A DNA stretch of 64,000 nt from an uncultured Planctomycetaceae bacterium (GCA_963844055.1 CAWJMN010000002.1:2181586-2245585); one strand, 5' to 3'. Shown: positions 562 to 43,989, numbered from the stretch's first letter. Numbers and translations: made by a program. Notes: generated by a model not told the origin, from the sequence alone.

Positions 562-591
562 GCGTTGTTCGTTGCGGATGGATCAGCGAAC

Positions 592-1599: not shown

Positions 1600-1839
1600 G
1601 GTTGTAGCCTTACGAAAGCGAGAGGGTTCAAAAGGATTTCTTCGATGGGGCAAAAATTTGGTTGAGCCGCACCGTCCCACCGCATTATATTGATCAAGTT
1701 TGATGGATGGAAACAGCCCCAGCATACCATTGGAAAGAGTTCGCCGTGCCTACAAAGAGTTTCCTTCGCAAGATTGCGGTTCGTCGTTTACTCGGCTCCC
1801 TTTACGTCGGAGCGTCGCTGAGCACTAATCACCTGTGGA

Positions 1840-6338: not shown

Positions 6339-6375
6339 CGGTTTTGTCGAGTTCCGTGCTGAAGGAGGGCCATCC

Positions 6376-7599
6376 ATGCCGTCTTACTCTTGCTATTTGC
6401 AATGGCTAGGGCGACTGTCTTGGACAGGCTGCCTCCTACTAAGCAGTTGTTGGGCTAATAGCCATGCGGCCGAGGAGCCAGCTCCTCCCGCGAGTGCGGA
6501 GCAGATTCAAACCTGGGCCGATCAACTCGATAGCGCCAACTTTGCCGAGCGTGAAGATGCAACGATTGCCTTGGTGAAGCAAGGGGCTGCGGCAATTGGT
6601 CCAGTGGCCCAGCAGCTTTCTTCCCCCAGCTTAGAAGCAACCTCCCGCGCGCTCCATATTCTGCAAGAGCTAGCGCAGGTCGATAATCTAGACACACAAG
6701 CGGCCGCACGCGATGCGATTGTGGCTGCCGCACAAGAGGCGGGCCCGATGTCGCGGCGATTTGCCGTGGCGATTGCCGCGCTCAATCAAAAGCGATCGGC
6801 CAAGGCACTGCTCGACCTTGAACGACTGGGCGCCCGGATTGAACGGCGGACCGAACTGTTTGTGGCCGGGGTTCCCAACTTTGCCATTCAAGGGATTCCC
6901 AATGCAGCGAACTTTGGCATCGCGCTGCAGCTCGGCTCAGACTTCAAAGGAACCATCGGTGACTTGCGCCGGCTGGAGTGGCTAGAAAATGTTAGCCAGC
7001 TGGAGTTGTCGGGCGAAAAGGTGACCGATGCGATGGTGGCTATGGCGGTCAAAGTACCGGGCCTGGTTAGCCTGCACTTGTATGACACCGTGCAAGTGAC
7101 CGATCAAGGCTTGGCCGTTTTGCCGGAAGCGAAATCGCTGCGTGAGCTGGGGCTGTACTACATGCCAGCAACGGATGCCGCGGTTCCTTCGATTTCCAAA
7201 ATCATCAGCCTGAACGAGCTAAAGCTGTACGGAACCCAGATCACTGCCGAGAAGAAGGTCGAACTGGTTGCCTCGCTGATGGCGGTGCGCATCGACTATC
7301 GCCGCGGCGCCTTCTTGGGTGTTGGTGGACTTTCCAGCGAGAATGAACTTGTCGTCAACATCGTCCACGAAGGAAGCCCAGCCGAAAAAGCAGGTTTACA
7401 GCCAGGCGATGTGCTGCTCACGTTTGAAGGAAAGCCACTGGATCAGTTTGATACGCTGACCAAGCACATCTCGGAGCATAAGCCGGCCGACAAGGTGAAG
7501 ATCGAAGTGCGTCGCAGTGGGCAGGTCGATCCAATTGCGATCGAGGTCACGCTGGGACGCTGGGAACAGCGGCTCTCGGTTAGCAACCAGCGCCGCTAG
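6376..7599 (+). CDS. secreted leucine-rich-repeat protein with C-terminal PDZ domain
   Basis: The track ORF 6076..7599 overlaps the upstream gene. The in-frame Met at 6376 starts a signal-like N-terminus, LRR-like repeats follow, and the C-terminus is PDZ-like (GVGGLS...GLQPGDVLLTFEGKPL). Confidence 0.55.
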   Translation: MPSYSCYLQWLGRLSWTGCLLLSSCWANSHAAEEPAPPASAEQIQTWADQLDSANFAEREDATIALVKQGAAAIGPVAQQLSSPSLEATSRALHILQELAQVDNLDTQAAARDAIVAAAQEAGPMSRRFAVAIAALNQKRSAKALLDLERLGARIERRTELFVAGVPNFAIQGIPNAANFGIALQLGSDFKGTIGDLRRLEWLENVSQLELSGEKVTDAMVAMAVKVPGLVSLHLYDTVQVTDQGLAVLPEAKSLRELGLYYMPATDAAVPSISKIISLNELKLYGTQITAEKKVELVASLMAVRIDYRRGAFLGVGGLSSENELVVNIVHEGSPAEKAGLQPGDVLLTFEGKPLDQFDTLTKHISEHKPADKVKIEVRRSGQVDPIAIEVTLGRWEQRLSVSNQRR

Positions 7600-7620
7600 T
7601 TGGTAAGCATCGTCTGCGAC

Positions 7621-8526
7621 TTAGATCCGCGGACGAAAGATCACCGGAAGTAGTTCAACGGTGCGGATTGATCGCCCATTCTTTTTCGCGGGCTGAGCAC
7701 GCCACGCTTCGACCGCTTTTTTGGCCGCACTGTCAAGGATTGCAAAGCCGCTGCTGGTTTCAATCTTGGCTTCTACAACGGAGCCCGTTTCATCAATCGT
7801 GATACGCAGTAGCACGGTGCCATGCCAGCCGTTTTGCTGCGCGAGGGCTGGGTATTCCGGCGGAACATTGCCCGAGAAGACGGGACGTTCCATCTTTTCA
7901 AAGCCCGTCGCGATCGGTGGGATCGCGGGACTTGCAATGCTAGGGGGAGCCGCTGGTGCTCGGCGAGGTGTAACTGCTGCAACCGGCTCAGCAGGTTGCA
8001 ACGAAGGAGGCGATGAAGGTGTAGGCTCTGCGCGAGAGGGCTCCGCAGCGACGACGCCTTCTTGCGTCGCTACTTCCATCGCTTCGACCGCTTCGAGCGG
8101 AGGTGGCTCATCGGTTTGCTTTTCGGGCTGTGTGGTGGTTTCGCTAATCGTGGTCGCAACGTGTAGCGGCGAGGCGTCAACCGGAACGGCTGCGGCAGGT
8201 TCAGATGGAGCCGGCTGGGGTGCGACCTCAATCGCCACATCATCGATGGGCGGTTCCGCAGGAGCTTCGGCCGGGCTCGACGGGGCGCTAGAAAGCTGGA
8301 TGACGATCACGCCCGAACGGCCCGCAAGATCTGCCTCTTGATCGAGTTGCTTTTGAACGTACCACGATCCAACCATGAACGCACCAATCCCACAGGCGTG
8401 CACGAGCACGGAGGATTTCAGCGAGATCAGGGCCGTTGTCCAGGGACATCGCGGCAATCGAAACCAGGAAGAGACCAACGAACGCTTGCTCCCAATTGAC
8501 TGAGTGTGGAACTGCCGCCGTGGCAA
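7621..8526 (-). CDS. TonB family energy transducer
   Basis: It has an N-terminal TM segment, a Pro/Ala/Glu-rich spacer and a C-terminal TonB domain (FSGNVPPEYPALAQQNGWHGTVLLRITIDETGSVVEAKI). It is divergent from the TonB-dependent receptor gene. Confidence 0.7.
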   Translation of the reverse strand: MPRRQFHTQSIGSKRSLVSSWFRLPRCPWTTALISLKSSVLVHACGIGAFMVGSWYVQKQLDQEADLAGRSGVIVIQLSSAPSSPAEAPAEPPIDDVAIEVAPQPAPSEPAAAVPVDASPLHVATTISETTTQPEKQTDEPPPLEAVEAMEVATQEGVVAAEPSRAEPTPSSPPSLQPAEPVAAVTPRRAPAAPPSIASPAIPPIATGFEKMERPVFSGNVPPEYPALAQQNGWHGTVLLRITIDETGSVVEAKIETSSGFAILDSAAKKAVEAWRAQPAKKNGRSIRTVELLPVIFRPRI

Positions 8527-8868
8527 TGATTCCTAGGATGATTCATCGTACATCCAACGGGTAGACCTTTTCCTCCATCGGAACGTGTTCGCGGTCAAAA
8601 TTCCACCACCGGGATCGGTCAAAATCGTGCCAGCGTGGTGAAAAAATCGCCACGGCTTGAGAGAAAAACGAACGCCTTACGGAAATGGCACGTTTTTCGG
8701 CGTTTGGCTAACGCGCTAACCGTCAAATTCCGAACCTTTCTATCGGGTAAGGAACCAGAGGCTCCTTACTTAGGGTGGTTCTGCCAGAAACGCTAGCAAA
8801 GCGAGTTTCTGGTGAAGGCGAACCAGCCCCTAAGCATTGCAGGTTCTTTACAAGGTTTTTGATAGGCG

Positions 8869-11195
8869 ATGAACATCCGCAAACCTTTTCCTGGCCATCG
8901 CATTGGCTCCCTTGGGGGCATGCTGATTGGGCTGGCGCTACTTCATGGGGCAAACCTCTTTGCCCAGGAGAGCCTGCATATTGATGATGACGATGCGCCA
9001 ACGGTTGAGGCGACCGCCTTCCAGCAAGAATCGGCCGAGCCGATGGGAACGCTGCCAGCGGTGGAAGTGCAGCCCAGTGACCTGCCCTCTTCGGTTGTGA
9101 CCGGAGGCGAGATTGGCGAAGTTCCACAGTCCGGGGGACTGTTTGATTTACCCTTTAGCTACCCCTCGCTTTCGGATCAGTTGTTTGAAGGGGCAAGCTC
9201 GGGCGTACGCGGGCTGAATCGTTCGGTAGCCGACTTGCCCAACAATGCGACGATCATCGATCGCGCAACGATACAAGAGAAGCAAGCGCAGACGCTCATG
9301 CAAGCCTTGCAAAATGAGACAGGTGTGCTGGTGCAGCAAACCGGGCGTGGCCAGTCTTCGATCTTTATGCGCGGCGTGACTGGACAACAGGTGTTGATCT
9401 TGGTCGATGGCATTCGCGTGAACAATTCCACCTTGTCGCTGGCCCTAACCAGTACTCGGCTCTGTTTGATCCCGGCTCGATCGATCACATTGAAGTGATT
9501 CGCGGCTCGCAATCGACGATGTGGGGTGGCGACGCGATTGGTGGCGTGGTGAATATTGTCACGCGTGGGGCGAACCCCAACCGGGGCAACTATACCGGCA
9601 CGAACTTCCAGCAAACGTTTAGCTCGGCCGACCTGGGCACCTATAGCCGTGCGAGCCTCGAAGGTTGGGTGGGACGCCAAGGGCTGTATGCAGGTGGCAG
9701 CTATTTAGATAATGACAACTTGGATCGGGGCGGCGGCCTCGGGCGTCAGCCGGGAACCGAATATAGTCAGTACGCCTTTGACCTGAAGTACAACTTCTTA
9801 GTCAGCGATACCGACCTGTTAACGGTGGTGATGCAACATTTTGAGCAGCAGGATGTGCCACGGAGTGATCGCTTTGATCCTTTTGTGAAGCAGAACATTC
9901 CCACCGCTGCCGCTCGTCCTACCTATTTTGATCCACAGCAGCGCGACTTGATTTATGCTCGTCTGCAGGGCGAAGGAATGAACGCCTTTTACGATACCTA
10001 CGCGCACACGGTGTCGTGGCAGTTCAACAAAGAAGGAACGACCGAGCAGCAAGGGAATCAGCTGACCCGGGGTGAGTTCGACGTCAACACGTGGGGCTAT
10101 ACCATGACATTGACCAAAGACCTTGAGCACTTTGGCATCATCAGCTACGGCGGTGATTACTACAATGATGCGATTGACTCGGTGCGCTCACGCCGGGCGA
10201 ACAATGCGGCCCCGTTTGTGCCCGTGGCCTCCGCCCAGTATCCCAACGATGCCACTTATGATCGTGGCGGCGTCTATGCAACCTGGGATTTGCAAGTCTC
10301 TCAGCGGCTGAACATTTTGGCCGGCGGTCGCTACGAAAATGTGAACGCCCAAGCGACACCGCTGGTAACGCTTAACAATGTGGCCAATACGCCCTATCCG
10401 TTTGATCGCACCTATCAGGCTTGGGTTGGCAATATCGGCATGACCTACAACCTGACCGATCAGACCAACGTCGTGGGCGGTATCTATCAAGGTTTCCGCG
10501 CACCTTCGATTGACGACCTCACGGCCGACAAGACCTTCTTACAAAACGCACAGAACACACCCACCGTCGGTGCCCTTAGTGTTCAGCCGGAACATAGCCG
10601 GACGTATGAAGTCGGGCTGAAGCATGATGGCGAGCGTTTGCGTGGCGGCCTTTATCAATGGTGGATGAACATTGATGACTACATGACGCGCGTTCCCGAT
10701 GCCAACAATGTCGTCGTGCTGGGAAACAGCAATGCTGCCTTGCATGGTACTGAGCTCAATGGCGAGTACTTGCTTGATCCACAGTGGAGCCTGTACGGCA
10801 ACTTTTGGTACACCTGGGGCAATGACACCAACACGGGCGATGTCTTTCCACGAATTCCGCCCACCCAGGGAACGCTTGGCGCACGTTGGCGAGACGAAGC
10901 CCGCCTTACCTATGTCGATCTATATACCTGGATGGTCGATCAAGTGGAGGCCCGCCACTATCCACGCTCGCTCTTTAACAACTTGGGGCAATCGACCGAT
11001 GCCCGCTTTCCTACCGGTGGCACAGCCGGCTATGCGACGCTTAACCTGCGGATGGGGCGGACCTTTGGCGAAACCCAGGCCCATCGGATTAGCACAACGT
11101 TTTACAACATCACCGACAAGTACTATCGCGTGCTAGGTTCGGGCGTCGATGGCGAAGGGTTCAACGCCCTGATCACTTACGAGTACAAGCACTAG
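8869..11195 (+). CDS. TonB-dependent outer-membrane receptor, interrupted by an apparent frameshift near 9430-9450
   Basis: ORF 8869..9498 carries the signal peptide and plug domain (FMRGVTGQQVLILVDGIRVNN). ORF 9495..11195 (GTG-initiated in the track) carries IRGSQSTMWGGDAIGGVVNIVTRG plus the beta-barrel. The frame-0 continuation ...GPNQYSALFDPGSIDHIEVIRG reads through the junction. Confidence 0.7.
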
Positions 11196-12193
11196 TTCGA
11201 GCGGAATAGCTCGTGGCATTCGGTGCAGGCTTTGCCGATGACGGTGCCGGCCGAGCTGGCTGCGTCGAAGTTCTTTACCTTGCAAGCCTCGACAATGTCG
11301 CGCGAGGCTTTTTCGAGCGTCTTGCAAAAGGCCTTGTACTCGGCAGAGTCGGCGTCTTCCATCCCTTCCTTGGCGATGGCAGCGGCAATCGCTGCAAAGA
11401 CTTCTGCCTCGCGCGAGATCTTCTCGACATTGGCGGTGAACTGCCCCTTGTCGTTCAGGGAAGGTTTGAGGCTTGGCTCAAAGACATCTTCCAGATACTG
11501 CATCAAAGGTCCACGATCACAAACGGCCGCCCAGCTGGCCTTGGCGTCGGCCTCTTTGCCGCTGAACGGGTCACTACCGCCAACGAGGTCGGCCAGTTCG
11601 GTCTTGCGAAGCTTCGCTTCGGCAAAGACTTGGTCGGTACCCACCTTGGCATTGGCGGCCGTGCGTGAAAACGTGTCGCGGGCGGCAGCGGCCGACTTCT
11701 TCCAGCGCACATCCCCTTCGTACTCTCCCGCGATGGCAAACAGCATGGCCAGCATCGAGAAGTCGCGGCGGATGACGCGGTAGCCTTTTCCTTTGAAGTC
11801 GCTGGGGGTTGTGATGGCGCCATCGACCTTTAGTTTGATCGCCTTGATTTCATCTTCGATCGTTTGGGCCGAGATCACCGCCGACCAACCCGTTCCAGCA
11901 GCACCACCAGCGCTAGCGGCCGGCGTGTTGCCCCCTGTAGGTGCGCCGGTCGTGGCGGCTACGCTCTTGCCAAGGTCGGCCGGACGTTCGCCAACGAGTG
12001 CTTCTTTGAAGGCATCGGCAAAGAAGACGTCGGGCTCTGCAGCGAGCTTGGGAAGTTGCACGCGGCGAATCTTCTTGGGCCCTTTGGTTTGTGCCCAGAC
12101 GGCCGAGTTGCCAACATACATCCCGAAGATGCAGGTCACCCCGAGGATTGCTACCAGCAGGGCGGTCAACTTTGCAAATCGCTTGCGAGACAT
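11192..12193 (-). CDS. membrane-anchored protein with C-terminal CxxCH (class II cytochrome c / cytochrome c'-like four-helix domain)
   Basis: It has an N-terminal TM segment and an Ala/Gly/Thr-rich linker. The helical C-terminal ~150 aa end in ...GKACTECHELFRSN, the position typical of class II c-type cytochromes. Confidence 0.45.
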   Translation of the reverse strand: MSRKRFAKLTALLVAILGVTCIFGMYVGNSAVWAQTKGPKKIRRVQLPKLAAEPDVFFADAFKEALVGERPADLGKSVAATTGAPTGGNTPAASAGGAAGTGWSAVISAQTIEDEIKAIKLKVDGAITTPSDFKGKGYRVIRRDFSMLAMLFAIAGEYEGDVRWKKSAAAARDTFSRTAANAKVGTDQVFAEAKLRKTELADLVGGSDPFSGKEADAKASWAAVCDRGPLMQYLEDVFEPSLKPSLNDKGQFTANVEKISREAEVFAAIAAAIAKEGMEDADSAEYKAFCKTLEKASRDIVEACKVKNFDAASSAGTVIGKACTECHELFRSN

Positions 12194-12911
12194 TGCGTAA
12201 ACCCTTCGCAGGGCACCTTGGAGAGCTATCGAAAAACGACTGACCAGATTATCTACGGAAACTTGTCATGCATTCTTCGTAGGGTGGGTCGAGCCGCAGG
12301 CAATGACTCTCCATGTTTGAACGGCCAAAGGGGATTGGTCGTCCTACACTTTTCGAGAAGTTCGCATGATCGTTTTGTTCAGGCCCAACTAGCCTTCGGC
12401 GCTGGTGGGTCATCGCGGCGTTGCCGCTCGACGCCACCCTACAAAGGCACGAAACGGAATCGCTGGGAGGCACTACTTCAGTATGGCTTTTTACGGGGGC
12501 TCATGCAATTGGCATTTTTCCTCTACAAAACGGCAGGGGTGGCACGTACCTGGAGACGCAGGCAAAGGTCGTGGCCTTAGAGGTTCCGCCAAAACTTCTT
12601 CAAGCCGCCGGCATTGGCGCTTTTCCCGGAACGATGGTTTTCGCCTGGAATTTGGAATAAAACTGACGGCCTTGTCTGGTGATCGACGAACGGGGAGTCT
12701 AACCTTGCCGTTTACCGGGTAGCACAGAAGCTTGGTGGCGGCTGGGCAAATGCGAGGGCGTTTGTAAGCCTTCAACGGCGAAGGTGGCCGGGCCGGCGAA
12801 CCTAGGCCAACTTAGGGAACTCACAAGTTTAGTACTAGCAAAGTCTTCGACGAAACGAAACCGATTCAAAAACGGCTCGACCTTGGGCCTTGGCTGGAAT
12901 TAGAGCAAAGC

Positions 12912-14121
12912 ATGGAATGGACGGAAGCGCAAACCAAAATTGGCAAGCGGTTCAACCTTGCCATCGAAGAAAACAAGACGAAAGTAGTTCGCGAGCTAGT
13001 GCAGAAGCACTCCTGGCTCGTTCGGGATTACGAATGGAATAATCGTTCTACCTGGATGCGAACTGTAGGGCTCGTTGGTCATGTGGCGATGGCGGAAACG
13101 CTGTTGGACCTGGGTTTCAATATTGATGCCTTGAGTCTGCCAGAAAAATCTTCTGCCTTGTCTCTCGCTATTGCCTTTAAGCATTGGGATTTAGTTTGTT
13201 TTCTATTGGCAAAAGGGGCTAACCCTAACCTGGGGCGGGCGATGGTGTCGGCGATCAATTGCGAGGTTCCCGCCAAGCGTTTAGAACTGGTGATGTTGCT
13301 GGTAAAACATGGCGCCGACGTCAACCAGGTATATGACTTCATGGGTGACAAAGACACGGTATTCACAGTTCTAGATTGGACTGAAAAAAGTTCCGATGTC
13401 TACGCCTATCTGAAATCGGTGGGGGCCAAGCCCGCTTTCGAACTCAGAGGGAGTTCGAAAGATGTCGCAGCAACCGCTCCTGCCAAAAAAACGGCCGTCA
13501 AAAAGCGAGTTGGCGTTCCGACTGGGGAGCGGGAGGTGATCGACTATTTTCGTAAGGCCTTTGGGCCGGTCGATAAGAAAATTGTTAGCGAGGTGATTCC
13601 GACGGGGATTTCAGTAACGATCCATAGGATCAAGCCTTCCAAGGGGCGTCCGCACCTCACCTTATTTACAACCGGACTTTCGCAAGTCGCCATGCAGGTG
13701 CCTGCCGGCCAAGAGGAATATGCGCTGGCCGAGCTTTTCATTCAGCTACCCTACGACTGGAATGATGAGCAGCTTGGCAATCCAAAATGGAATTGGCCTT
13801 GGAAGTGGTTGCAAAAGGTGTCGCAGTATCCGCAGCAGAACCAGACTTGGCTGGGGGGGGCCGCTCACGATTGTGGCCAACGAAGAACCGCCCCGGCCGC
13901 TGGCCCCTCATACGAAGATGACGTCGCTGTTGCTTCTGGCCGAGAAGTCGTTCCAGCGAAAGGATGGCAAGGTGGTTCAGCTTTATCGGATGCTTCCACT
14001 ATTCACAGAAGAGCGAGCGCTCGAACAGCGTGAAGGTGCCCTTGCTTTGATGCAGGCCCTTGACCGGAACAAGGTCCCCTTTGTTGTCGACATGGCCCGC
14101 AAGAGCATCGCCAAAAAGTAG
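12912..14121 (+). CDS. ankyrin-repeat + SUFU-like (immunity-type) protein; frameshift in a G8 homopolymer at ~13849-13857
   Basis: The N-terminus has ankyrin-like repeats (LAKGANPN..., LVKHGADVNQ). A SUFU-like segment (HLTLFTTGLS...ELFIQLPYDWN...WNWPWKWL) continues after the poly-G in ORF 13720..14121 (WGGPLTIVANEEP...LYRMLPLFTEERALEQ...). Confidence 0.55.
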
Positions 14122-14123
14122 GC

Positions 14124-14156
14124 CGCCATGTGCTGGGGCGGCACGTTTTTGATCCG
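14124..14156 (+). terminator. candidate intrinsic terminator
   Basis: GCCGCC-ATGTGCTGG-GGCGGC hairpin followed by ACGTTTTTGA. Confidence 0.4.
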
Positions 14157-14163
14157 GCTTGGC

Positions 14164-14197
14164 CGGAAGAAATCGGCCGCGGGGTGAGGTAGGATAG
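14164..14197 (+). promoter_or_regulatory. conserved 34-nt upstream motif (copy 1) CGGAAGAAATCGGCCGCGGGGTGAGGTAGGATAG
   Basis: It lies about 45 nt upstream of paralog 1 and is near-identical to 18953..18986, which sits upstream of paralog 2. Confidence 0.5.
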
Positions 14198-14239
14198 TGA
14201 CAGTCATCGTTGGCAGTAGTTTGGCGGCGGGTTCTTATC

Positions 14240-15619
14240 ATGTCCAAATCAATTCGCCGACTACGCAATGTAATTGTTGTTATGGTGATGTGCTGGACTG
14301 CCGTCGCCGTGTTTGCCGCGAGGCGTTTCTATGTAGATCTGCGGGATAGCAAGCGGGTTACGGCCAAGATTGATACGCTCCGCGCTACTAGCCTTCCCGT
14401 CGATAATGCAACGATGGATAAGTGGTATCGTGATCATACCGATCCGGACCACATGGAAGCGTGGCTAAAAGTTCTTGAGACCCTTAGCTCTCGAACTTTT
14501 CGTGCACAATCCCGAGGCGTAGAAGGGTTTGATCGCAATGCCCGGGGCAATGCACGAACGGCCCATCAATGGCCAGGAGAGGCTGCTGCTCGAAAGTTGC
14601 TCGCGGAGACGACAGAATTGCGAGAAGAAATCCGACGCCTTGCCCAAACGCGAGTGCCGGTCCGATTTCCGATTGAGTTTCAATCGACGCGTACCAACCG
14701 AGGGCATATCCAGCCGCTAAGACAGGCTTCTCGATTGATTGCGCTGGAACTTAGTGCGGCCATCGCGGACAAAAATTCTGCGCAGATCGTTGCTGCTGTG
14801 CAAACCTTGCTTGATCTGGCAGTGGTTCTTCGTCGAGAGTATTTCAACGTCCAACAACTTTCGAATATCGCGATTCGAGATTTGGCCTTTCATGCCTTAA
14901 AAGAGTCGCTGGAGCGCGACCTGCTCGCATCAAAAGAACTAGAACTTCTCTCGCAGAGTTTGCCGCAAGAGCCAGTGCCGTTTGATTATCTTCAAGAGAT
15001 CGTCCAGGCTGAACGTGCGTTGCTGCTTCCCTTGTTCATAGAGCCGACAAGGCATTCTGAATCGAAGTTGAAAGAAGTTGTTTCTGGGGGAAAGCCCGTG
15101 ACCGGTAAGGCCGCGCCTCAAGATGTGCTGCATTTTTTAGAGCAGATGGAAAAGTATGAATCCCTAGATGGCATTTCGATGACGGATGCGCTGGCACGGC
15201 AAAGTCGATTTGAACAGCAGATGATGAAAGACATCCTAGCGACTGGCAAGGTGAGCCTTCGCGAGTGGCAAATGACAAAACAAGTGTTTCCTGCTTGGGG
15301 CTCTGTCCTCACGACCTTGTGCCACGATCGCCAGCGATTGAACATGGTTTTGCACGGCATAGCGATTCGGCGTTATCAGGATCAGTTTGGCAAATTCCCC
15401 CAGGACTTGGCCGCACTGAAAGACATTGGATTTAACGCCGATGACTATTTGCCCGTCGGGGGCAAACCCATGGGATACAAAATCGATGGGACCGATGTGA
15501 TTTTATGGTCCAATCGCCCCGCCGTAGGCGAGCAAACGTCCCCTCAGCCTCCCATCATCGGCCCAGCAGGCACCGGCGATTTCCGACAGGACCAACTGCT
15601 GTGGAAAATGGTCCCCTAA
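14240..15619 (+). CDS. hypothetical membrane-anchored protein, paralog 1 of a triplicated family
   Basis: Start chosen at MSKSIRRLRNV to match paralog 3. It has an N-terminal signal-anchor TM and a conserved C-terminus (HGIAIRRYQDQFGKFPQDLAALKDIGF...LWS...WKMVP). Confidence 0.6.
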   Translation: MSKSIRRLRNVIVVMVMCWTAVAVFAARRFYVDLRDSKRVTAKIDTLRATSLPVDNATMDKWYRDHTDPDHMEAWLKVLETLSSRTFRAQSRGVEGFDRNARGNARTAHQWPGEAAARKLLAETTELREEIRRLAQTRVPVRFPIEFQSTRTNRGHIQPLRQASRLIALELSAAIADKNSAQIVAAVQTLLDLAVVLRREYFNVQQLSNIAIRDLAFHALKESLERDLLASKELELLSQSLPQEPVPFDYLQEIVQAERALLLPLFIEPTRHSESKLKEVVSGGKPVTGKAAPQDVLHFLEQMEKYESLDGISMTDALARQSRFEQQMMKDILATGKVSLREWQMTKQVFPAWGSVLTTLCHDRQRLNMVLHGIAIRRYQDQFGKFPQDLAALKDIGFNADDYLPVGGKPMGYKIDGTDVILWSNRPAVGEQTSPQPPIIGPAGTGDFRQDQLLWKMVP

Positions 15620-15713
15620 TGTGGCCGCAGGGTGATGTTGGGATGCGTTGGCGGGAATTGGCAAGACGCCATTTACGTGCCTGCAAGCCGAGAGGTCGTT
15701 ACAGCGAAAAGTT

Positions 15714-15812
15714 GGCAAGGTGGTTCCACTTTGTCGGATGCTTCCACGATTCACAGAAGAGCGAGCGCTCGAACTGTTTGAAGGCTTGCCAAACGGGGGT
15801 GCTGTGTTTTGA
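15714..15812 (+). pseudogene. decayed fragment of a SUFU-like C-terminus (GKVVPLCRMLPRFTEERALELFEGL...)
   Basis: It is nucleotide-similar to 13961..14040 of the ankyrin-SUFU gene but has no start codon, so it reads as a truncated remnant. Confidence 0.5.
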
Positions 15813-16155
15813 CCTAAGAGGGGCCTGTCTCAAGGTCCTCATCCATTTTCCTTTTTGACGAAAAGAGGAAGGGGGTGCATTTTTTACATAAGGTGCCCTT
15901 TTGAGTGCTGTTGGCACAAATACACCGGGGGAATCCACAGTAAATAGACACTAACTCCTAATAGTCAGGCCGTCCTGCCGCCGCCAAATTTGATGGTACC
16001 AGTCGACCTACTTGTCTTGCGTACGTACCACCCGCAGAATACGTACTTTCCAGCATGTTCTCATGCTAAATCGATCGAGATTCTTGGATCATTCACTTTG
16101 ACGAATGCCCCTCCCTTTCTCCAAGATGATCCACGTTAACGAAGAGGGAATGTAG

Positions 16156-18821
16156 ATGGCGCTTTCAAGCGAGCAATTCCTGAATCAGATTGTCGCCAGC
16201 GGACTGCTGACTCAGGAAGAGGTTACGGCATTGTTAGGCACTTTGTCGCCTGAACGGCAACCCAAAGATGCCGAGCAGCTCAGCTCGCGAACTTGTTCGG
16301 CAGAAGAAGCTGACCAAGTATCAGGCCGAGCAGATTTATGCGGGCAAAGGCAAGACGCTGATTCTTGGCAACTATGTGGTGCTCGACAAGCTTGGCCAAG
16401 GCGGCATGGGAGTGGTGCTGAAGGCGGAGCACAAGCGGCTCAAGCGTCTGGTTGCTTTGAAGGTGATGTCTCCCAATCTGGTGAAGACACCGGATGCCTT
16501 GAAGCGGTTTCATCGTGAGGTCGAAGCGGCCGCCAAGTTACGTCATCCGAATGTCGTCGCAACGGACGACGCCGATGAAGCCAAGGGGACACACTTTCTG
16601 GTGATGGAGTATGTGCAAGGCAGTGACCTTTCGGAGCTCGTGAAAAAGAATGGTCCATTTACGGTGTCGCAGGCCGTGCAATGTATCCTGCAAGCGGCAC
16701 GCGGACTGGAGTACGCCCACAAACAGTCTGTGGTCCATCGCGACATCAAGCCAGCCAATTTGTTGCTTGATATTTCGGGTACCGTAAAGATTCTCGATAT
16801 GGGGCTGGCGCGAATCGAAGGGGATACGGGCAACCAGAGCGGACTGACCAGCACTGGCGCCGTGATGGGAACGGTGGATTATATGGCTCCCGAACAGGCT
16901 ATGAGTACGAAGCATGCCGATGCGCAGTGATATTTACAGCTTGGGGATTTCCTTATGGTATTTACTCACCGGTAGATGTGCCTACGACGGAGATACATTG
17001 ATGTCGAAACTACTGGCGCATCGCGATGCGCCCATTCCGTCGCTCGCTTCACTGGATCGTAAAATCCCGGCTGCGCTGGATAGCGTGTTTCGTAAGATGG
17101 TGGCGAAAAACGCCAGTGAGCGGTACCAGACGATGGCAGAGGTGATTCGCGACCTGGAGAGCTGTTCTGGCGGCTCCAGTTCGCCTTCCGAGGCAGGGGC
17201 GACAAGCGACCTGGAAAAGTTCAGCCAGTTTTCGCTTCATAGACAGCCCGCAGGTTCGCCATCTCCCATGACGGCAACGCAAACGATCTCGGCGCCAAGG
17301 GAGCAGACCAAGGCAAACACTCCGTTAGAAGCGACGTTGGTGGTCGCCAATGCTGCGATGGATACAAATCCGCAGACCGTCGCTTTGCTCCGCCCACAGG
17401 AGCGGTTGCCGACGGTTGGGCAATCGCCAGTTGCTGGTAAAACCACAGCGCCGCCATGGTATCGCAGTCCACTGGTGCTGCTTGCCGGAGGTGGTGCGGC
17501 AGCGCTGATCCTGTTGATGGTGGTGTTCCTGATGAAAACTCCGCATGGAACCTTGCGTGTGGAGATTCTCGATCCCAAAGTCGAGATGAAAGTAAAAGGT
17601 ACCGAAATCACGTTTCACTCGACGGACATCGAAGCGGTTTCGCTAGTTACGGGCGAAAAGAAACTAATCGTTAACCGGGGAGATCTCTCCTTTGAAACGG
17701 AGACCTTTGCGCTAAAGAAGGGAGCAGAGACCCTCGTCAAAGTAGAGCTGATTGGTGACCAACTTGTAGTGAATAGCGACGGCAAAGTGATTGCCGAGAA
17801 ACCGATCCCGCATCCACTCGCAAACAATGCACCGAAGGATATGACGAAGGAAACGATTCCTGTCGTGGCGACTCCGGTCGCAAGGCCTCCTGTGTCCAAG
17901 GATGGAATTCCGAATGCGGCGGTTGAACCGTTTGACACGGAACAGGCTCACGCCTATCAGGAAGCATGGGCGAAGTACCTTCAAGTGCCGGTTGAATTTA
18001 CAAACTCGGTAGGGATGAAGTTCATACTTGTCCCACCGGGAGAGTTTACGATGGGTGCTTCTGAGGCGGAAACAGATCGGATCGATATTTCAAACGACGA
18101 CGAGGAAATTCGAAAAATTGTGCGGCAAAAATTTGCTGAGTCTTCTCCACCACATCGGGTGAAAATCACGCGGCCGTTTTACATGCAGACACATGAAGTG
18201 AACAACGGTGTCTACCAGAAGCTGCTGGGAAAACTTCCTGAGGAAAACGACCCTGCGAGGCCCGAGATGCCAGTGATGGCAAACGTGTCCCTTAATGACG
18301 CCGTCTCGTTTTGCGATGCACTCAGCAAGCTGGAAGGTAAGACTCCTGCGTATCAACTGGTCCGTAATAAGCCAAAGCGGAATCTCGATGCGAATGGATA
18401 TCGATTGCCAACCGAAGCCGAATGGGAATATGCTTGTCGAGCTGGCACGACGACCCTTTGGCATTTCAAAACGGAACCCATGGTTCCGAAAAATCTTTTG
18501 GCGCTGAAAGAGTATCAGACAATTTGGAGTAAGGAAAATACACGCCCCAACCCCTTCGGCATCTATGACCAATATGCATCAAGTAGCGAATGGTGTTTCG
18601 ACCGTTTCCAGCCGTATTCCGATAAGACCGAAGTCGATCCATTCACTCCGCCCGATGAAGGTTACGCAGTCGTACGCGGGGGGAGTTTTTTTTCCAACGG
18701 CGGAGCAGACGCAGGAGACAACAACAGCTTCATTCGCATGGCCGGTATTGCAAGCCGATACACGGGCCTGGGGCGTGTCGTTCTCCCCCTTGAGATCAAG
18801 CAAGAGACCCCCAAGCCGTAA
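16156..18821 (+). CDS. Ser/Thr protein kinase fused to a formylglycine-generating-enzyme (SUMF1/FGE-sulfatase) domain; two apparent frameshifts (~16285-16295 and ~16920-16925)
   Basis: Kinase motifs [32 protein letters not shown] and APEQ are present. The frame breaks before subdomain I and at ...[16 protein letters not shown] segment follows, then an FGE domain ([20 protein letters not shown]...[20 protein letters not shown]). Confidence 0.7.
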
Positions 18822-18952
18822 CTGTCTCACTTGAGGCAACAACCTGTCGAATTGACCAGCCATTCAAAACGTTGACTTGTAGCGGCATCGTTAGGCGATG
18901 GGAGAATGAAGGGGCCACCGCGACCTAGTAAACCTGAGTTCTCTCACTCTTC

Positions 18953-18986
18953 TCGGAAGAAATCGGCCGCTGGGTGAGGTAGGATA
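18953..18986 (+). promoter_or_regulatory. conserved 34-nt upstream motif (copy 2)
   Basis: CGGAAGAAATCGGCCGCTGGGTGAGGTAGGATAG lies upstream of paralog 2 and differs by one nucleotide from 14164..14197. Confidence 0.5.
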
Positions 18987-19028
18987 GGCTCCTGGGACTT
19001 GGCAAGTCGTGGGGCAAGGGATTCGTAC

Positions 19029-20405
19029 ATGTCTACAACATTTCACCGCATGCTTATCGGCATTGTGGTTATGGTCGTCATTGGCTTTTTGCTGTGGGGA
19101 ATATTCCTTACGGCGTTTGCCGCATGGTATGCCTATGCAGATCGCGGGCGTCCGGAGGTCACCGCAAAACTGGATGCGCTCCGGGCGTCGGGCGTGCCCG
19201 TGGATAATGAATCGCTGGATGCTTGGTATCGAGAGCGTACCGATCCGGCCGACGCCCGAGCTTGGCAGGTGGTCTTTGCCAAGCTTCAATCGCCAGAGTT
19301 CAAATCGCTTACCCTAGGAATTGAAGGATTTGATCCACGAGCCAAAGACACCAAGCGAACCGCCGACAAATGGCCCGCAGAGGATGCCAGTCGTAGGCTT
19401 CTGGCAGGAACTACTGAGCTGCGCAAGGAGATTCATCGCCTAGCCAGCAAACAGGTGGCGGTGCAATTTCCGATTCAGTTTGATTCCATTCGTACCCAAC
19501 CAGATTATTTGCCGTTCATTCGAAACGCGTCGCGTTTGATTCAATTGGAGTCTGATGCAGCAATCCAAGATCAGAACTCACCCGAGATTGTCGCTTCCGC
19601 CAAAACGCAGATTGATCTGGCGATGGTTGTCAGCGGTGATGGTTCACTGATTGCACAATTGTATGCGAACGCCCTGCGAGGAACGGGGTTTAGGGCGCTG
19701 AAAGAAGCCTTAGAACGAGACTTGATCGATGCCGCCGATCTAGAAAGCTTAGCGACACAATTGTCGCAGCCTCAATTTTCAAGTACTCGATTTCGCGACG
19801 CAATACGATGCGAGAGAGCATCTGGCCTTCCCGCGTTTTTTGCCCCCGGCAAATACCTGAGCGACGGTGCCAGCGAGATACCAAAAAACTATCAGGCCGC
19901 GGCGCAAGACCTTTTGCACTATTTAGATTACATGGAGCGGCTAGAGACGCTTGAACAATTGCCCATGGCGGAGGCGATCGAGAAGGCGAAGCAAATCGAG
20001 TCCGATTTAAAAACCCGACGCGAGCAAGCTGGGATGTTGGGAACGCGTGAATGGATGCTGACGTGGCTGCTTGTGCCTACAACGGGTACGACCTTCTATT
20101 CCTTCTGCCGTGATCGCCAGGACTTTAACATGGTCATGCACGGCATTGCGATCCGTCGCTACCAAGACCAGTTGGGTGAATTTCCCCGCGATCTTTCGGC
20201 GCTGAATGACATTGGGTTTGATACCTTTGACTACATGCCGGTGGGCAAGCGTCCGATGGGCTATCGCCGTGACGGTGATGAAACCATCCTCTGGTCTACG
20301 CCTCCCTCGCTTGGATTGGAAACCACGCTTGAGCCTCTCACTCTCGAACCTAACGACCGGAATTATGACCTGATTCAGTCGATGATTTGGAAGTTTACTC
20401 CGTAG
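19029..20405 (+). CDS. hypothetical membrane-anchored protein, paralog 2
   Basis: Internal Met MSTTFHRMLIGIVVMVV starts the TM anchor. The C-terminus (MHGIAIRRYQDQLGEFPRDLSALNDIGF...) is conserved with paralogs 1 and 3. Confidence 0.6.
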   Translation: MSTTFHRMLIGIVVMVVIGFLLWGIFLTAFAAWYAYADRGRPEVTAKLDALRASGVPVDNESLDAWYRERTDPADARAWQVVFAKLQSPEFKSLTLGIEGFDPRAKDTKRTADKWPAEDASRRLLAGTTELRKEIHRLASKQVAVQFPIQFDSIRTQPDYLPFIRNASRLIQLESDAAIQDQNSPEIVASAKTQIDLAMVVSGDGSLIAQLYANALRGTGFRALKEALERDLIDAADLESLATQLSQPQFSSTRFRDAIRCERASGLPAFFAPGKYLSDGASEIPKNYQAAAQDLLHYLDYMERLETLEQLPMAEAIEKAKQIESDLKTRREQAGMLGTREWMLTWLLVPTTGTTFYSFCRDRQDFNMVMHGIAIRRYQDQLGEFPRDLSALNDIGFDTFDYMPVGKRPMGYRRDGDETILWSTPPSLGLETTLEPLTLEPNDRNYDLIQSMIWKFTP

Positions 20406-20460
20406 GCCAGGATTCATCCTGGCAAATTCTGCGGCTATGCCAGCAGGAAACAACAAGTTC

Positions 20461-20497
20461 GGCCATGGAAGGTCAATCGCTAGACGGGCGGCGCGAT
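20461..20497 (+). repeat. conserved 37-nt downstream motif (copy 1) GGCCATGGAAGGTCAATCGCTAGACGGGCGGCGCGAT
   Basis: It lies ~55 nt after the paralog 2 stop. A second copy at 22212..22249 lies after paralog 3. Confidence 0.5.
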
Positions 20498-20761
20498 TTG
20501 TAGTCCTTCGCGAACGGAATGTAAAACAGCGGCGAACCACGAAAAAGCGCGAAAGACACGAAAAAGCAATGCAGAGGTTCTTGTTTCGCGGATAGATCAG
20601 AAACAAGGTCATGCATCGCCAAGCACGAAACGGCTCTCTCCCTATTTATGTCTTTCGAGCTTGCAACTTCCGCCTACTCGTCACAGACTTAATGGTTCAC
20701 AGCGTCATAAGGCGAGATTGTCTTACAAGTTACAGCATCGGTTTGACGGCGGGGGCTTGTA

Positions 20762-22129
20762 ATGTCCAAATCCAATCGTCGACTACGCAATGTGTTTGTT
20801 GTTGTGGCGATGTGCTGGACTGCCGTTGCTTGTTTTACCATGGGGCGGGTCTATGTGGATCTGCGAGACAGCCTACGAGTCACGGCTAAACTCGATTCGC
20901 TACGAACTGCGGGGGTACCAGTCGATTACCAAATGCTAGATGTGTGGTATCGCAAGCGTACCGACCCCACAAACACCGAGGCTTGGTTAAAAGTATTGGA
21001 AACGTTGAACTCTCCCCAGTTCAAGGAACAATCTCAAGAAGTTGAGCGGTTTAGCGCAAAGTACACCTCTTCCAGTCGAACGCATGATCAGTGGCCCGGC
21101 GAAGCTTCAGTTCGAGACTTGCTCGCCCAAACAACGGAACTACGCGAGGAAATTCGACGTCTCTCAGAAGCACGCACCCCGGTCCAGTTTCCGACTCGGT
21201 TCACATCGATTTGGGCGGACTTAGAGCAATTGGGCTCGCTTCGGCGGGCCGCTAGGCTAATCGCCTTAGAGCTTGAGGCCGCAATCGTGGATCAAAATTC
21301 GGCTCAAATCGCTGCGTCTGCACAAACCCTTTTCAATCTATCCACGGTGTTTTGCGGGGAGGCGTTTATTATTCAGCGTTTTGTCGCTATTGCTGTTCGA
21401 GATTTGGCCTTTGAGGGCCTGAAAGAAGCGCTAGAACGGAATTTGCTGGATGCTGCAGAATTAGAGATGCTGGCACAAGGTATGTCGCAGGAGTCACCAC
21501 CGTTTAAAAACTTTTCCGACTGTGTCCATGGTGAACTTGGACTTGCACTTCCCCAATTTTTTATGCCGCTAGATATCTCGAAAAAGAATCCCCTAACGGG
21601 AACAAGGATGATGTATTTAGCAGCGTCTCAAGATACGCTTCGTTACGTCGAGTACATGGAAAAGTACCATGGCATTGATGGTAGCTCGATGGCAGACGCG
21701 CTGGAAAAACAAGAGACGTATGAATACCAATTAAAGAAGGAGATGCGGGCTGCCGGAGGATTGGGAATGCGAGAATGGTACGTTACAAGCGTTCTGCTTC
21801 CGAGTTGGCGGGAAGTTGTTGTAGCGATTTGCCGAGATTGTCAGTATAGGCACATGGTTTTGCATGGTGTTGCGATACGTCGCTATCAAAAGCAGTTTGG
21901 CGAATTCCCAAAGAACCTTGCCGCGCTAAAAAACGTTGGGTTTGATACCTACGAATTTCTGCCCGTTGGTGACAAGCCGATGGGGTATAAGCTAGAAGGA
22001 GACAACGTAGTACTCTGGTCGACTTCGCCAGCAAATGGAATGGAAACGATGGAGCAGCCCCCGGCTATCGACACTTTTCGTTCGCGAGATTTTGTCCAAG
22101 AGTACCTGATTTGGAAGATGGTGCCGTGA
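20762..22129 (+). CDS. hypothetical membrane-anchored protein, paralog 3
   Basis: MSKSNRRLRNVFVVVAMCWTAVA TM anchor. The C-terminus (LHGVAIRRYQKQFGEFPKNLAALKNVGF...IWKMVP) is conserved. Confidence 0.6.
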   Translation: MSKSNRRLRNVFVVVAMCWTAVACFTMGRVYVDLRDSLRVTAKLDSLRTAGVPVDYQMLDVWYRKRTDPTNTEAWLKVLETLNSPQFKEQSQEVERFSAKYTSSSRTHDQWPGEASVRDLLAQTTELREEIRRLSEARTPVQFPTRFTSIWADLEQLGSLRRAARLIALELEAAIVDQNSAQIAASAQTLFNLSTVFCGEAFIIQRFVAIAVRDLAFEGLKEALERNLLDAAELEMLAQGMSQESPPFKNFSDCVHGELGLALPQFFMPLDISKKNPLTGTRMMYLAASQDTLRYVEYMEKYHGIDGSSMADALEKQETYEYQLKKEMRAAGGLGMREWYVTSVLLPSWREVVVAICRDCQYRHMVLHGVAIRRYQKQFGEFPKNLAALKNVGFDTYEFLPVGDKPMGYKLEGDNVVLWSTSPANGMETMEQPPAIDTFRSRDFVQEYLIWKMVP

Positions 22130-22211
22130 CGTGCGTTGGTAAAACAGCAACGGACCGGCAAAAGGGCAACGTTCGTGCTTGTTTCTTCCGCCTTCGTGGC
22201 AACGATCTATT

Positions 22212-22249
22212 GGGCCATGAAAGGTCAATCGCTAGACGGGCGGCGCGAT
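22212..22249 (+). repeat. conserved 37-nt downstream motif (copy 2)
   Basis: GGGCCATGAAAGGTCAATCGCTAGACGGGCGGCGCGAT is followed by a perfect hairpin CTGTCCGGA-TTTA-TCCGGACAG. Confidence 0.5.
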
Positions 22250-22325
22250 AAAAGAGGGAGCGCCGAGGGCGCTGTCCGGATTTATCCGGACAGTTGTTAC
22301 AAGGGAGTGCCCGAACGCATGCCGA

Positions 22326-22700
22326 TTAATCAAGCTGGGCGGGGCTGAGGCCGACGTTGACGATGCTGCAAGCTTGAATCACGTTCAGCCCAAGCTTTTC
22401 GGCGGCCGCGACTACTTCGTCGCTTTCACTGCCGGGGTTCAGCCAAAGCTCGTTACAGCCACGGGCAGCGATCTCTGGCAAAACGTTCAGCAGAATCTTG
22501 GGAGGCAGATAAACGCTCACGCGATCTAACTGTCCGGCAGGAATTTCCGCGAGCGACGAATAGACTTCAAGACCCTCGATCTGCCCCCCTTTGGGATTGA
22601 TCGGATAAACCGTGAAGCCTTTTTGCAAATGGGCTCGGACCGATTTATTGCCGTACTTCGAGCGATCGGAACTGGCTCCTAGGATGGCGACGGTAGGCAT
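22326..22700 (-). CDS. CoA-binding domain protein (YccU-like)
   Basis: MPTVAILGASSDRSKYGNKSV...LPPKILLNVLPEIAARGCNELWLNPG. Start placed at the Met preceding VAILGAS. Confidence 0.6.
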   Translation of the reverse strand: MPTVAILGASSDRSKYGNKSVRAHLQKGFTVYPINPKGGQIEGLEVYSSLAEIPAGQLDRVSVYLPPKILLNVLPEIAARGCNELWLNPGSESDEVVAAAEKLGLNVIQACSIVNVGLSPAQLD

Positions 22701-22955
22701 GGCACAGGCTCTCTGCAAAGGAAATGGCGGACGGACTTTAGGTGAGATTATTCTGCCTGGCATTTTAGTGGATCAGACTGGTTTTCCCTAGCGGCAATCG
22801 TCGTTTTGCAGGGGCGTTAAGCAAAAATGCGTTTGTTAGGCCCTGCTGGCCGGAAGGGGTGGGTGTCTATAATGGAACTAGCCTTCAAGCTCGGTGGGTT
22901 TGTTGCTTGGGGCTGGCTCCTTTTGATGGAATAGGTCCGGCGCTGATGGCGCTGC

Positions 22956-24219
22956 ATGCTCATGTCGATTGCTGATACTTTGCCGCTAGACCCTTATCGC
23001 CTGCGGGCCGACTTTCCGATCCTTTCGCGAGAAGTGCATGAAGGTCGGCAGCTTGTCTATTTGGATAATGGCGCAACAACCCAACATCCGCGCAGCGTAA
23101 TCGATGCGCTCGTGGGAGTTTACGAAAAGCATTATGCGAACGTCCATCGTGGCATCCATACGCTGAGCGAAGAGAGCACCAGCCTGTATGAAGCGGCCCG
23201 CGAGGCGATTCAAAAGTTTATCCATGCGGCCAAGCTGGAAGAGATCGTCTTTACAAGTGGAACGACGGCCGGCGTGAACCTGGTTGCCCGAAGCTGGGGC
23301 GATGCGAACGTTCGCGCCGGGGATGAGATCTTACTGACGCTGATGGAGCACCATTCCAACATCGTTCCGTGGCAACAATTGGCCGAGCGAACCGGTTGCA
23401 CGATTCGATTTGTTCCGCTGACGACAGACTTGCAGCTGGACCTTGAGGCCTTTGAAAAATTGCTCTCGCCTAAGACCAAGCTGGTCGCCTTCACCGCGTG
23501 CAGCAATGTGTTGGGGGCTTATAACCCGGTTGAAAAGATGAATCGCTTGGCCCATGCGGCCGGAGCGCTAGTGCTGGTAGATGCGGCGCAGGCAGTGCCT
23601 CATGCCGAGCTGGACGTACAGAAGTGGGACGCCGATTTTGTCGTCTTCAGTGGGCACAAGATGCTAGGGCCTTCCGGCGTGGGAGTGTTGTATGGCAAAG
23701 AAGCACTGCTTGAGGCCATGCCGCCCTTCTTGGGAGGTGGCAGCATGATTCGTAGCGTCACGCTCAGGGGTTATGAAAACGCGATGCTTCCTGCGAAGTT
23801 TGAAGCAGGGACTCCGCCGATTGCGCCGGCCCTGGGAATGACAGCCGCGATTGAATACCTAACCGGTGTTGGCCTGGAGAACATTCATCGGCATGAGGCA
23901 CTGCTTGCCGAGCGCGATTCCGCTGCTAAAGAATGTGCCTGGGCTAACGCTGTTTACACCTCCGAGCGAAGCGGGGCATAGTGGGATTTTGTCGTTCGTG
24001 ATTGAAGGGCTGTCGTCACGTGACATTGCCGAGTATTTGGACATGCGAGGGATTGCGATCCGCGCAGGGCATCACTGCGCGATGCCGTTACATGAACGGC
24101 TTGGCGTTTCTACGACGTGTCGCGCGAGCTTCTACTTGTACAACACGCCCGAAGAGGTCGATCAATTAGCCGCAGCGCTGGTGAGTGCACAGCGGATCTT
24201 GTCGAAGCGGCGACGATAA
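22956..24219 (+). CDS. sufS: cysteine desulfurase SufS/CsdA family; apparent frameshift near 23915-23920
   Basis: PLP-lysine motif FSGHKMLGPSGVGVLYG is present. The C-terminal RAGHHCAMPLHERLGVSTTCRASFYLYNTPEEVDQL lies in the overlapping ORF 23866..24219. The junction reads ...LAER/AIPLLKNVPGL. Confidence 0.8.
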
Positions 24220-43965: not shown

Positions 43966-43989
43966 ATCTCGTTGTTGGTAATAACGTGT

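Follow-up and report, generated by a model that had tools for sequence, protein, structure and literature searches.

Do an ankyrin-SUFU gene, three paralogs of an anchored protein of about 460 amino acids (aa) and a kinase-FGE gene that lie side by side in a planctomycete genome form a single toxin/immunity-like module, or do they adjoin one another for some other reason? The genes in question occupy positions 12,912 to 22,325 of a 64,000-nucleotide (nt) stretch from an uncultured Planctomycetaceae bacterium (GCA_963844055.1 CAWJMN010000002.1:2181586-2245585; family Pirellulaceae), the whole of which we call the window. The ankyrin-SUFU (ank-SUFU) gene, paralog 1, a copy of the SUFU tail, the kinase-FGE gene and paralogs 2 and 3 are all encoded on the plus strand between 12.9 and 22.3 kb, and every feature listed in the original prediction for this DNA was found at or near its predicted position. 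Our conclusion is that the block is probably the junction of two conserved synteny blocks, carrying three unrelated things. These would be a relic ank-SUFU gene derived from a left block of NIR_SIR, PDZ, TonB, TonB-dependent receptor, 333-aa CxxCH protein and ank-SUFU genes; a putative membrane Ser/Thr kinase with an FGE-like ectodomain, apparently carrying different lesions in two close relatives; and three intact members of a planctomycete protein family that would have its home in the right block.

The evidence comes chiefly from comparison with a close relative (L002, 92–95% identical to the window at the nucleotide level), an independent Logan assembly evidently of the same strain (L006/L007, 99.94–100% identical), three related genomes carrying a pair of the paralogs (L001, L003 and L008, the last being GCA_053550735.1), a relative more distant than L002 (L011), and four loci in which an ank-SUFU homologue occurs with an AHH reading frame (L013–L016). 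In other genomes the ank-SUFU gene and the paralog family are independent of one another. L011 carries an intact ank-SUFU gene after the NIR_SIR, PDZ, TonB, TonB-dependent receptor and 332-aa genes, as in the window; the genes 3′ of it are unrelated, with no match in the window, and no paralogs are found nearby. Conversely, in L001, L003 and L008 a tandem pair of paralogs lies between two NfeD genes and a run of CoA_binding_2 (minus strand), SufS-like Aminotran_5, DUF6655 (minus strand), PEMT and MIP genes, and no SUFU, ankyrin, kinase or other small conserved partner gene is present at these three loci. Pfam assignments and blastn collinearity place the same right-hand block directly 3′ of paralog 3 in the window. 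The proposal that the paralogs and the SUFU gene make up one toxin/immunity-like module is thus not supported, since each occurs without the other in relatives and no toxin or immunity match was obtained for the paralogs. The adjacency of SUFU gene and paralogs is best explained by the junction of two synteny blocks, the interval between the left block, which ends with ank-SUFU, and the right block, which starts with paralog 2, being filled by paralog 1, the SUFU-tail copy and the kinase.

The ank-SUFU gene itself (12912–14121, plus strand) does combine ankyrin repeats with a SUFU domain, as predicted, with the caveat that it is spread over two frames and is not one open reading frame (ORF). 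Pfam recognises SUFU (PF05076, cut-off 25 bits, profile length 172) above threshold on both halves, with E = 3e-15 and 56.9 bits on ORF 12912–14033 (profile positions 4–88) and E = 2.7e-11 and 44.1 bits on ORF 13720–14121 (positions 85–172), the two halves jointly spanning positions 4–172. The N-terminal ankyrin repeats score 38.4 bits (Ank_2) and 36.7 bits (Ank), with E ∼1e-9. The frame breaks by +1 at a homopolymer of eight G residues (G8, 13853–13860, plus strand); reading seven in its place gives ...QTWLGGPLTIVANEE... and an intact protein of 402 aa, the same length as an intact homologue that is 68% identical. The G8 is also present in L006, and its occurrence in two assemblies shows the frameshift to be reproducible. 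Homologues number 84; they are mostly 370–460 aa long and nearly all SUFU-positive, the full-length ones, which are the majority, having the Ank+SUFU arrangement, and the source names seen are all Planctomycetota (including Rhodopirellula sp. SWK7, Pirellulales and Planctomycetaceae).

The original prediction also called this gene immunity-type. Imm-SuFu has been listed as an immunity family that serves Tox-AHH and other toxins, with ankyrin fusions and with occurrences in planctomycetes (Zhang et al. 2012, PMC3482391, Table 3), and Imm-Ank as paired with Tox-AHH in planctomycetes (Zhang et al. 2012, PMC3482391). In L013–L016 a 50%-identical ank-SUFU homologue begins 6 nt 3′ of a 97-aa ORF that scores 26.1 bits with the AHH nuclease model (Pfam gathering score 22.3), the match covering the model's C-terminal half. 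Given the Ank and SUFU domains, the published listing and the AHH ORF 5′ of a homologue, we consider the immunity-type label, as a prediction from sequence, to be well founded. The L013–L016 locus is a toxin or toxin–antitoxin island of another planctomycete: within positions 1–11300 the AHH ORF stands behind a protein of >2379 aa and a 463-aa Amidase_6/NlpC-like protein, and TacA-acetyltransferase and PIN genes adjoin the AHH/ank-SUFU pair.

No toxin adjoins the gene in the window. The 718 bp 5′ of it (12194–12911), predicted as some 700 bp of noncoding DNA and partly missing from L002, hold only short ORFs (62–238 aa, these not having been scanned against Pfam), and a tblastn search of this stretch for a toxin remnant, using the L013 AHH ORF and its upstream proteins as queries, returned only chance-level matches at E ≤ 10. 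Directly 3′ of the ank-SUFU stop codon is a terminator-like hairpin with a T-run (14128–14151, plus strand), which matches the consensus in a window where the count of such matches is not above that in shuffled sequence. In L002 the interior of the gene (window 12982–14031) has been deleted, so that what remains is 70 nt from the 5′ end and, fused to them, the final ∼110 nt. The left neighbour, and left synteny anchor, is a secreted protein of 333 aa that carries a CxxCH motif at its C-terminus (11192–12193, minus strand; an ORF with no Pfam match), whose gene adjoins ank-SUFU also in L002, L006 and L011. This protein has a signal-like N-terminus, and its motif, CTECH, is haem-binding-like. 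The ank-SUFU gene is the last gene of the conserved left block, and an orphan relic that is being lost in the window lineage.

The three paralogs, predicted at about 460 aa, are all intact and are 43–54% identical over their full length. Paralog 1 (14240–15619, plus strand, 459 aa) is an intact ORF with a predicted signal-anchor, helical ectodomain and pilin-like C-terminal domain. It is nearest to paralog 3 (20762–22129, plus strand, 455 aa; 53–54% identity), and the two form a separate clade of the family tree, clade C. Paralog 2 (19029–20405, plus strand, 458 aa) falls in clade A and is the orthologue of g2, the CoA-adjacent gene of the pairs in L001, L003 and L008 (58–60% identity); the clade of the other gene, g1, is not represented in the window. 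A conserved C-terminus and a divergent middle had been claimed for the paralogs. Both are present (52–59% identity over residues 346–425 and 32–46% over residues 201–345), with the amendment that residues 36–200 are, at 49–56%, nearly as conserved as the C-terminus.

A word-indexed search recovered 13 close relatives of the family. Searching 1.84 billion representatives of clusters formed at 50% identity with a full hidden Markov model (HMM) yielded 2137 clusters with E ≤ 1e-3 and 139 with E ≤ 1e-30; most are 430–490 aa in length and are matched end to end. A repeat of the homology search with a 63-sequence profile made few additions. These 63 diverse members share no consistent Pfam or NCBIfam family, giving only scattered chance-level matches (E ≥ 5e-4). 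PADLOC returned no match for the three window paralogs, searches of PDB sequences with family profiles gave nothing meaningful, and a profile search of genome contigs with one family alignment gave no match. A degenerate DNA pattern that we made by hand for the K-P-F-G-Y...W-G motif and ran on GTDB genomes matched 14 of them; 12 are Planctomycetota, mostly Pirellulaceae/Pirellula/Rubripirellula, and 12 of 12 proved to carry true members. The family is unannotated, and the members recovered to date come mainly from Pirellulaceae. It occurs in multiple copies, arranged in tandem at a conserved site: its home is the right block, 5′ of the CoA-binding, SufS-like, DUF6655 and PEMT genes.

At the 12 family loci from named planctomycete genomes the neighbours vary, and include esterase, MoxR, extracytoplasmic function (ECF) sigma factor, multicopper oxidase and gamma-glutamyltranspeptidase genes; a PSCyt1-WD40 gene, present at three of the loci, is the sole recurrent neighbour, SUFU genes not having been specifically searched for there. 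PSCyt1 is a planctomycete cytochrome c domain, and the three PSCyt1 + WD40 proteins, of ∼960–1000 aa, are encoded directly 5′ of the family member and on the same strand in unrelated Pirellulaceae/Planctomycetia metagenome-assembled genomes (L017 345–3290, L027 2465–5344 and L028 2036–5053). At another locus (L020 3313–5370, minus strand) a gap of 4 nt separates the end of an ECF sigma factor gene from the family member 3′ of it, again on the same strand.

How does such a family evolve? Synonymous divergence (dS) between the paralogs is saturated, and they are therefore old. Comparing paralog 1 between the window and L002, we find 92% aa identity, a dS of 0.26 (neighbours 0.13–0.26) and a ratio of nonsynonymous to synonymous divergence (omega) of 0.16. 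Omega is below 1 everywhere; for orthologues within the family it lies at 0.13–0.16, compared with 0.02–0.07 for neighbouring genes, which is 3–8 times the value for flanking genes. Constraint is strongest in the C-terminal domain (omega 0.05–0.12 between orthologues). Overall, the family is under purifying selection, yet changes several times faster than its neighbours.

The comparison of L003 with L008 is more striking than these averages. Nine flanking proteins are 97.9–100% identical between the two genomes, whereas g1 is 45.5% and g2 81.3% identical. At the nucleotide level (L003 8450–11100 against L008 7900–10550) the flanks are 95–99% identical and the two family genes are a mosaic: identity is 35–54% over the first ∼1030 nt of g1, 81–97% from the C-terminus of g1 through the spacer into the N-terminus of g2, 63–79% over g2 codons ∼160–360, and 91–97% beyond. 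In the divergent block of g2, dS is 0.96, against 0.22–0.28 elsewhere, and omega is 0.24. As dS itself is raised there, the block points to old divergent alleles brought in by recombination in the conserved ends, and not to a local omega above 1. Near-identical strains have thus exchanged alleles and whole paralogs, the breakpoints lying in the conserved ends, and the paralog locus is a recombination hotspot. That the paralogs diversify, as had been suggested, is borne out both by these mosaic alleles and by the elevated omega.

An AlphaFold2 model of a family protein, built from a 14-sequence alignment (pLDDT 82, pTM 0.81), predicts a 45-residue N-terminal helix that holds the hydrophobic anchor. 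In the model, stacked helices follow as far as about residue 350, and the C-terminal part consists of a long helix, two short ones and a small sheet. The architecture of the family is an N-terminal hydrophobic anchor (the signal-anchor of the original prediction), an alpha-helical domain of ∼300 residues and a conserved C-terminal domain of ∼110 residues. The N-termini of the three paralogs read MSKSIRRLRNVIVV..., MSTTFHRMLIGIVV... and MSKSNRRLRNVFVV..., and because positive residues precede the hydrophobic segment, the proteins are predicted to be anchored in the cytoplasmic membrane and to face outward.

Other methods gave weak support for a known fold. Foldseek found no significant match to the family model; a likeness to pseudopilins, below significance, was seen with TIGR01710, which matched 3 of the 63 members (best E 0.003), and in an hhalign comparison with a PulG sequence (E 0.018, probability 2.6%), where the expected helix and 'Y...G..P' motif are aligned. 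The Pfam T2SSG model matched none of the 63 members. We have moderate confidence that the modelled C-terminal domain is pilin- or pseudopilin-like in fold. Membership of the true pilins was considered and rejected, as the class III prepilin signal (G|F-T-L-x-E) with its hydrophobic assembly helix was not found at the N-termini of the three paralogs. Planctomycetes have a very large pseudopilin repertoire, and pseudopilin-type apparatus is abundant in them; a literature search for planctomycete pseudopilin-like families found nothing specific. We suggest that the C-terminal domain may dock on a conserved envelope partner, possibly a pseudopilin-type apparatus, and that the variable helical domain may be an exposed interaction surface whose diversity would be supplied by duplication and recombination.

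The third component is the kinase-FGE gene (16156–18821, plus strand), which encodes a Ser/Thr kinase, a transmembrane (TM) segment and a C-terminal FGE-sulfatase-like domain. It had been predicted as a kinase-FGE fusion: Pfam finds both domains, Pkinase (E = 5e-42) and FGE-sulfatase (PF03781, E = 2e-24), collinear but in different frames, the gene being spread over three frames with starts at 16156, 16268 and 16914. Relative to the L002 copy the indels responsible are +1 at 16281 and −2 at 16924. The extra C at 16281 is missing from L006, and the first frameshift is probably an assembly error; Logan contigs break exactly at 16924, and the second frameshift is uncertain. The L002 copy has instead an in-frame TAA within the FGE domain. 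A literature search on this architecture found nothing specific.

Traces of rearrangement are found throughout the block, as the original prediction of cassette shuffling had implied. The predicted decayed fragment of a SUFU C-terminus is real: a copy of the ank-SUFU tail with an internal deletion lies at 15687–15812 (plus strand), with a 98-nt match (15687–15784 against 13939–14036, 89% nucleotide identity), the translation LQRKVGKVVPLCRMLPRFTEERALE and a stop at about 15812. The cassettes are bordered by near-identical repeats, D4, D6 and D8. The two copies of the 34-nt repeat D8 lie 5′ of paralog 1 (14164–14197, plus strand) and 5′ of paralog 2 (18954–18987, plus strand) and are 97% identical; those of the 40-nt repeat D6 lie 3′ of paralog 2 (20458–20497, plus strand) and 3′ of paralog 3 (22210–22249, plus strand) and are 95% identical. 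For either repeat, 0 such matches are expected by chance. We considered whether D8 and D6 might be conserved regulatory elements and rejected this, as they are confined to the window lineage and missing from L001, L003 and L008, a restriction that makes them better read as lineage-specific rearrangement scars.

Gene order differs between the window and L002. L002 has, in this order, the ank-SUFU remnant, kinase-FGE, paralog 1, the 34-mer and paralog 2, and one further contig carries mostly the same neighbouring proteins; paralog 1 therefore stands between the kinase and paralog 2 in L002, and between ank-SUFU and the kinase in the window. The 34-mer is found 5′ of paralog 2 in both, and 5′ of paralog 1 only in the window. 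Read at its junctions, the SUFU tail is contiguous with the region upstream of the kinase in the window and in L002, and the window has an extra copy. We sought a single event that would convert one order into the other, either excision and reinsertion or recombination at D4 or D8, and none fits the junctions. A plausible, though unproven, route is a duplication after which different copies were lost. We propose that the SUFU-tail copy and the 34-nt and 40-nt repeats may be scars of moves or insertions of paralogs 1 and 3, as opposed to components of a toxin/immunity cassette. Together with the frameshift and interior deletion of ank-SUFU and the kinase lesions, the tail copy bears out the predicted history of duplication and decay. 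A larger synteny replacement is seen to the left, from a DLH-type hydrolase gene common to the window and L001 up to the paralog locus (window 4200–12200 against L001 3789–8483), where the window has the NIR_SIR, PDZ, TonB, TonB-receptor and CxxCH genes and L001, L003 and L008 have GlnRS and two NfeD genes.

There remain several ways to account for these data. That the whole block is one toxin/immunity conflict module, in which duplicated cassettes of immunity gene and paralog are now decaying, we consider very improbable, and we would say the same of its corollary that the paralogs are diversifying toxins, effectors or receptors with the SUFU genes as their interleaved immunity partners. Such a module would account for a SUFU gene 5′ of paralog 1 with a SUFU-tail fragment 3′ of it, for paralogs that are multi-copy and unusually variable between strains, and for the toxin contexts in which ank-SUFU homologues are found elsewhere. 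It is at odds, however, with the absence of SUFU and ankyrin genes beside the family in L001, L003 and L008, with the 12 family loci, where only PSCyt1-WD40 recurs (SUFU, as said, having had no search of its own), and with an ank-SUFU gene that keeps its own synteny without paralogs in L011. In L002 a paralog lies 3′ of the kinase and not of SUFU, and the SUFU fragment adjoins the kinase upstream region in both strains. No toxin, immunity or PADLOC match was obtained for the paralogs; their C-terminus is their most conserved part (52–59% identity, omega 0.05–0.12), the opposite of what polymorphic toxins show; and the terminator-like hairpin, if its consensus match is taken at face value given a count not above shuffles, separates SUFU from paralog 1. 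Improbable too is the suggestion that the paralogs are sensors or co-receptors partnering membrane kinases or ECF sigma factors, with kinase-FGE as the functional partner. It draws on the position of a paralog directly 3′ of kinase-FGE both in the window (paralog 2) and in L002 (paralog 1), and on the ECF sigma gene that in L020 directly precedes a family member, both lying on one strand. Yet no kinase accompanies the paralog pair of L001, L003 and L008, the kinase carries lesions in both close strains, where the paralogs have remained intact, neighbours vary among loci, and the proteins have no cytoplasmic domain before the anchor with which to bind a sigma factor. For this last reason an anti-sigma-factor role was also rejected.

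If the paralogs are neither, what are they? Our own proposal, which we put forward tentatively and as a possibility that we judge well short of even, is that the family constitutes an undescribed hypervariable envelope locus of Pirellulaceae, in which a pseudopilin-like docking module carries an exposed helical domain kept polymorphic by duplication and recombination, for example under pressure from phage, predators or kin recognition. The alternative that the paralogs are ordinary, weakly constrained envelope or housekeeping proteins, shaped by relaxed selection, old duplications and occasional recombination in a rearrangement-prone region, we hold to be reasonable, though rather unlikely. 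An omega well below 1 everywhere is consistent with it, as are the length and architecture conserved broadly across Pirellulaceae, the age of the paralogs (saturated dS) and the lack of any defence or mobile-element signature. What it does not readily explain is the contrast between L003 and L008, in which family genes at 45% and 81% identity sit within flanks at 98–100% and the block boundaries fall inside conserved gene ends; so sharp a contrast is hard to derive from relaxed constraint alone and implies that divergent alleles were repeatedly imported or retained at this one locus. It is important to note that several observations weigh against the picture we favour, of a synteny junction that harbours a hypervariable family. 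Omega nowhere exceeds 1, diversifying selection being inferred from mosaic allele replacement; neighbours are not conserved beyond close relatives, and context gives no functional clue; the exact path of rearrangement could not be reconstructed. Some lesions are possibly assembly errors (16281 is missing in L006 and 16924 is a contig break), making kinase decay uncertain, and the TonB-receptor and SufS-like genes of the window are frameshifted too.

These last two genes flank the block. The TonB-dependent receptor (8869–11195), a single 775-aa gene in L002, is divided in the window between a 209-aa Plug ORF and a 566-aa barrel ORF, with the break near 9436–9498; a single C at 9437 distinguishes the window from the same-strain assembly L006, and this site is unstable or error-prone. 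On the right, the synteny anchor of the paralog locus is a CoA_binding_2 gene (22326–22763, minus strand; Pfam), 3′ of which lie the SufS-like, DUF6655, PEMT and MIP genes. The SufS-like class V aminotransferase gene (22956–24219) is frameshifted near 23911, its match to the L001 protein passing from frame 3 to frame 1. The combined indels suggest either a genome with many pseudogenes or leftover indel errors of assembly. An Rfam scan of the window from 11 to 24 kb gave no match above threshold. Further along, positions 43000–47000 are low in GC (0.45–0.51, against ∼0.56 elsewhere in the window) and contain three ORFs of ∼175–181 aa with no Pfam match and a leucine-rich-repeat protein at 45709–46557. 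The three ORFs, at 43–45 kb, were examined as possible paralogues of one another and proved not to be. This stretch may be a foreign island.

What the analysis means is that an apparent toxin/immunity island separates into an orphan immunity gene in the course of being lost and an unannotated protein family. The family shows among the sharpest local contrasts in diversity between near-identical genomes (45% and 81% against flanks of ∼99%). To our knowledge, almost nothing is known of strain-level interactions in planctomycetes; should the helical domain be exposed, it would provide a handle on them, whether in phage adsorption, adhesion or recognition. A pilin-like C-terminal module, if true, would link the family to the very large pseudopilin repertoire of planctomycetes, and a hypervariable envelope locus, if that is what this is, would correspond, in planctomycetes, to pilin or receptor-type variable loci. 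If instead the paralogs are merely weakly constrained envelope proteins, the region is an ordinary one.

Compared with known systems, two of the three components belong to classes already described. The ank-SUFU gene resembles Imm-SuFu/Imm-Ank (PMC3482391, PF05076) in its N-terminal ankyrin repeats and full-length SUFU domain and in that one homologue lies directly 3′ of a Tox-AHH ORF, the pairing given in Table 3 of that paper; it differs in having no adjoining toxin or toxin remnant, in being broken at G8 and in having lost its interior in L002. The kinase-FGE gene, with Pkinase, TM segment and PF03781 in that order, resembles Hanks-type Ser/Thr kinases with an extracytoplasmic FGE-sulfatase-like domain, an architecture also known as a class, and differs in being interrupted in the assembly, in the premature stop of its L002 copy and in a place beside the paralog family that is not conserved. 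It is the paralog family that is without existing annotation. Polymorphic toxins vary at the C-terminus, whereas the paralogs are most variable in the middle. From GspG/PulG/EpsG and the type IV pilins the family is distinguished by the lack of a class III signal and of an N-terminal Glu5-type assembly helix, and by the position of its pilin-like domain, which is C-terminal in a 460-aa protein, behind an anchor and a large helical domain; profile and Foldseek support for this likeness is below significance. Hypervariable recombining surface loci of the pilin, tail-fibre or receptor type differ in that no silent cassettes, invertase, diversity-generating retroelement or programmed-variation repeats were seen at the paralog locus, omega is below 1, and surface exposure of the paralogs is predicted from sequence. 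They are alike in having conserved ends, a variable middle and tandem copies, and in the replacement of whole alleles and of segments within flanks that are ∼99% identical. While it is not evidence for a new kind of system, the combination of an anchor, a helical domain, a C-terminal pilin-like module and strain-level mosaicism is new among variable envelope and pilin-like proteins.

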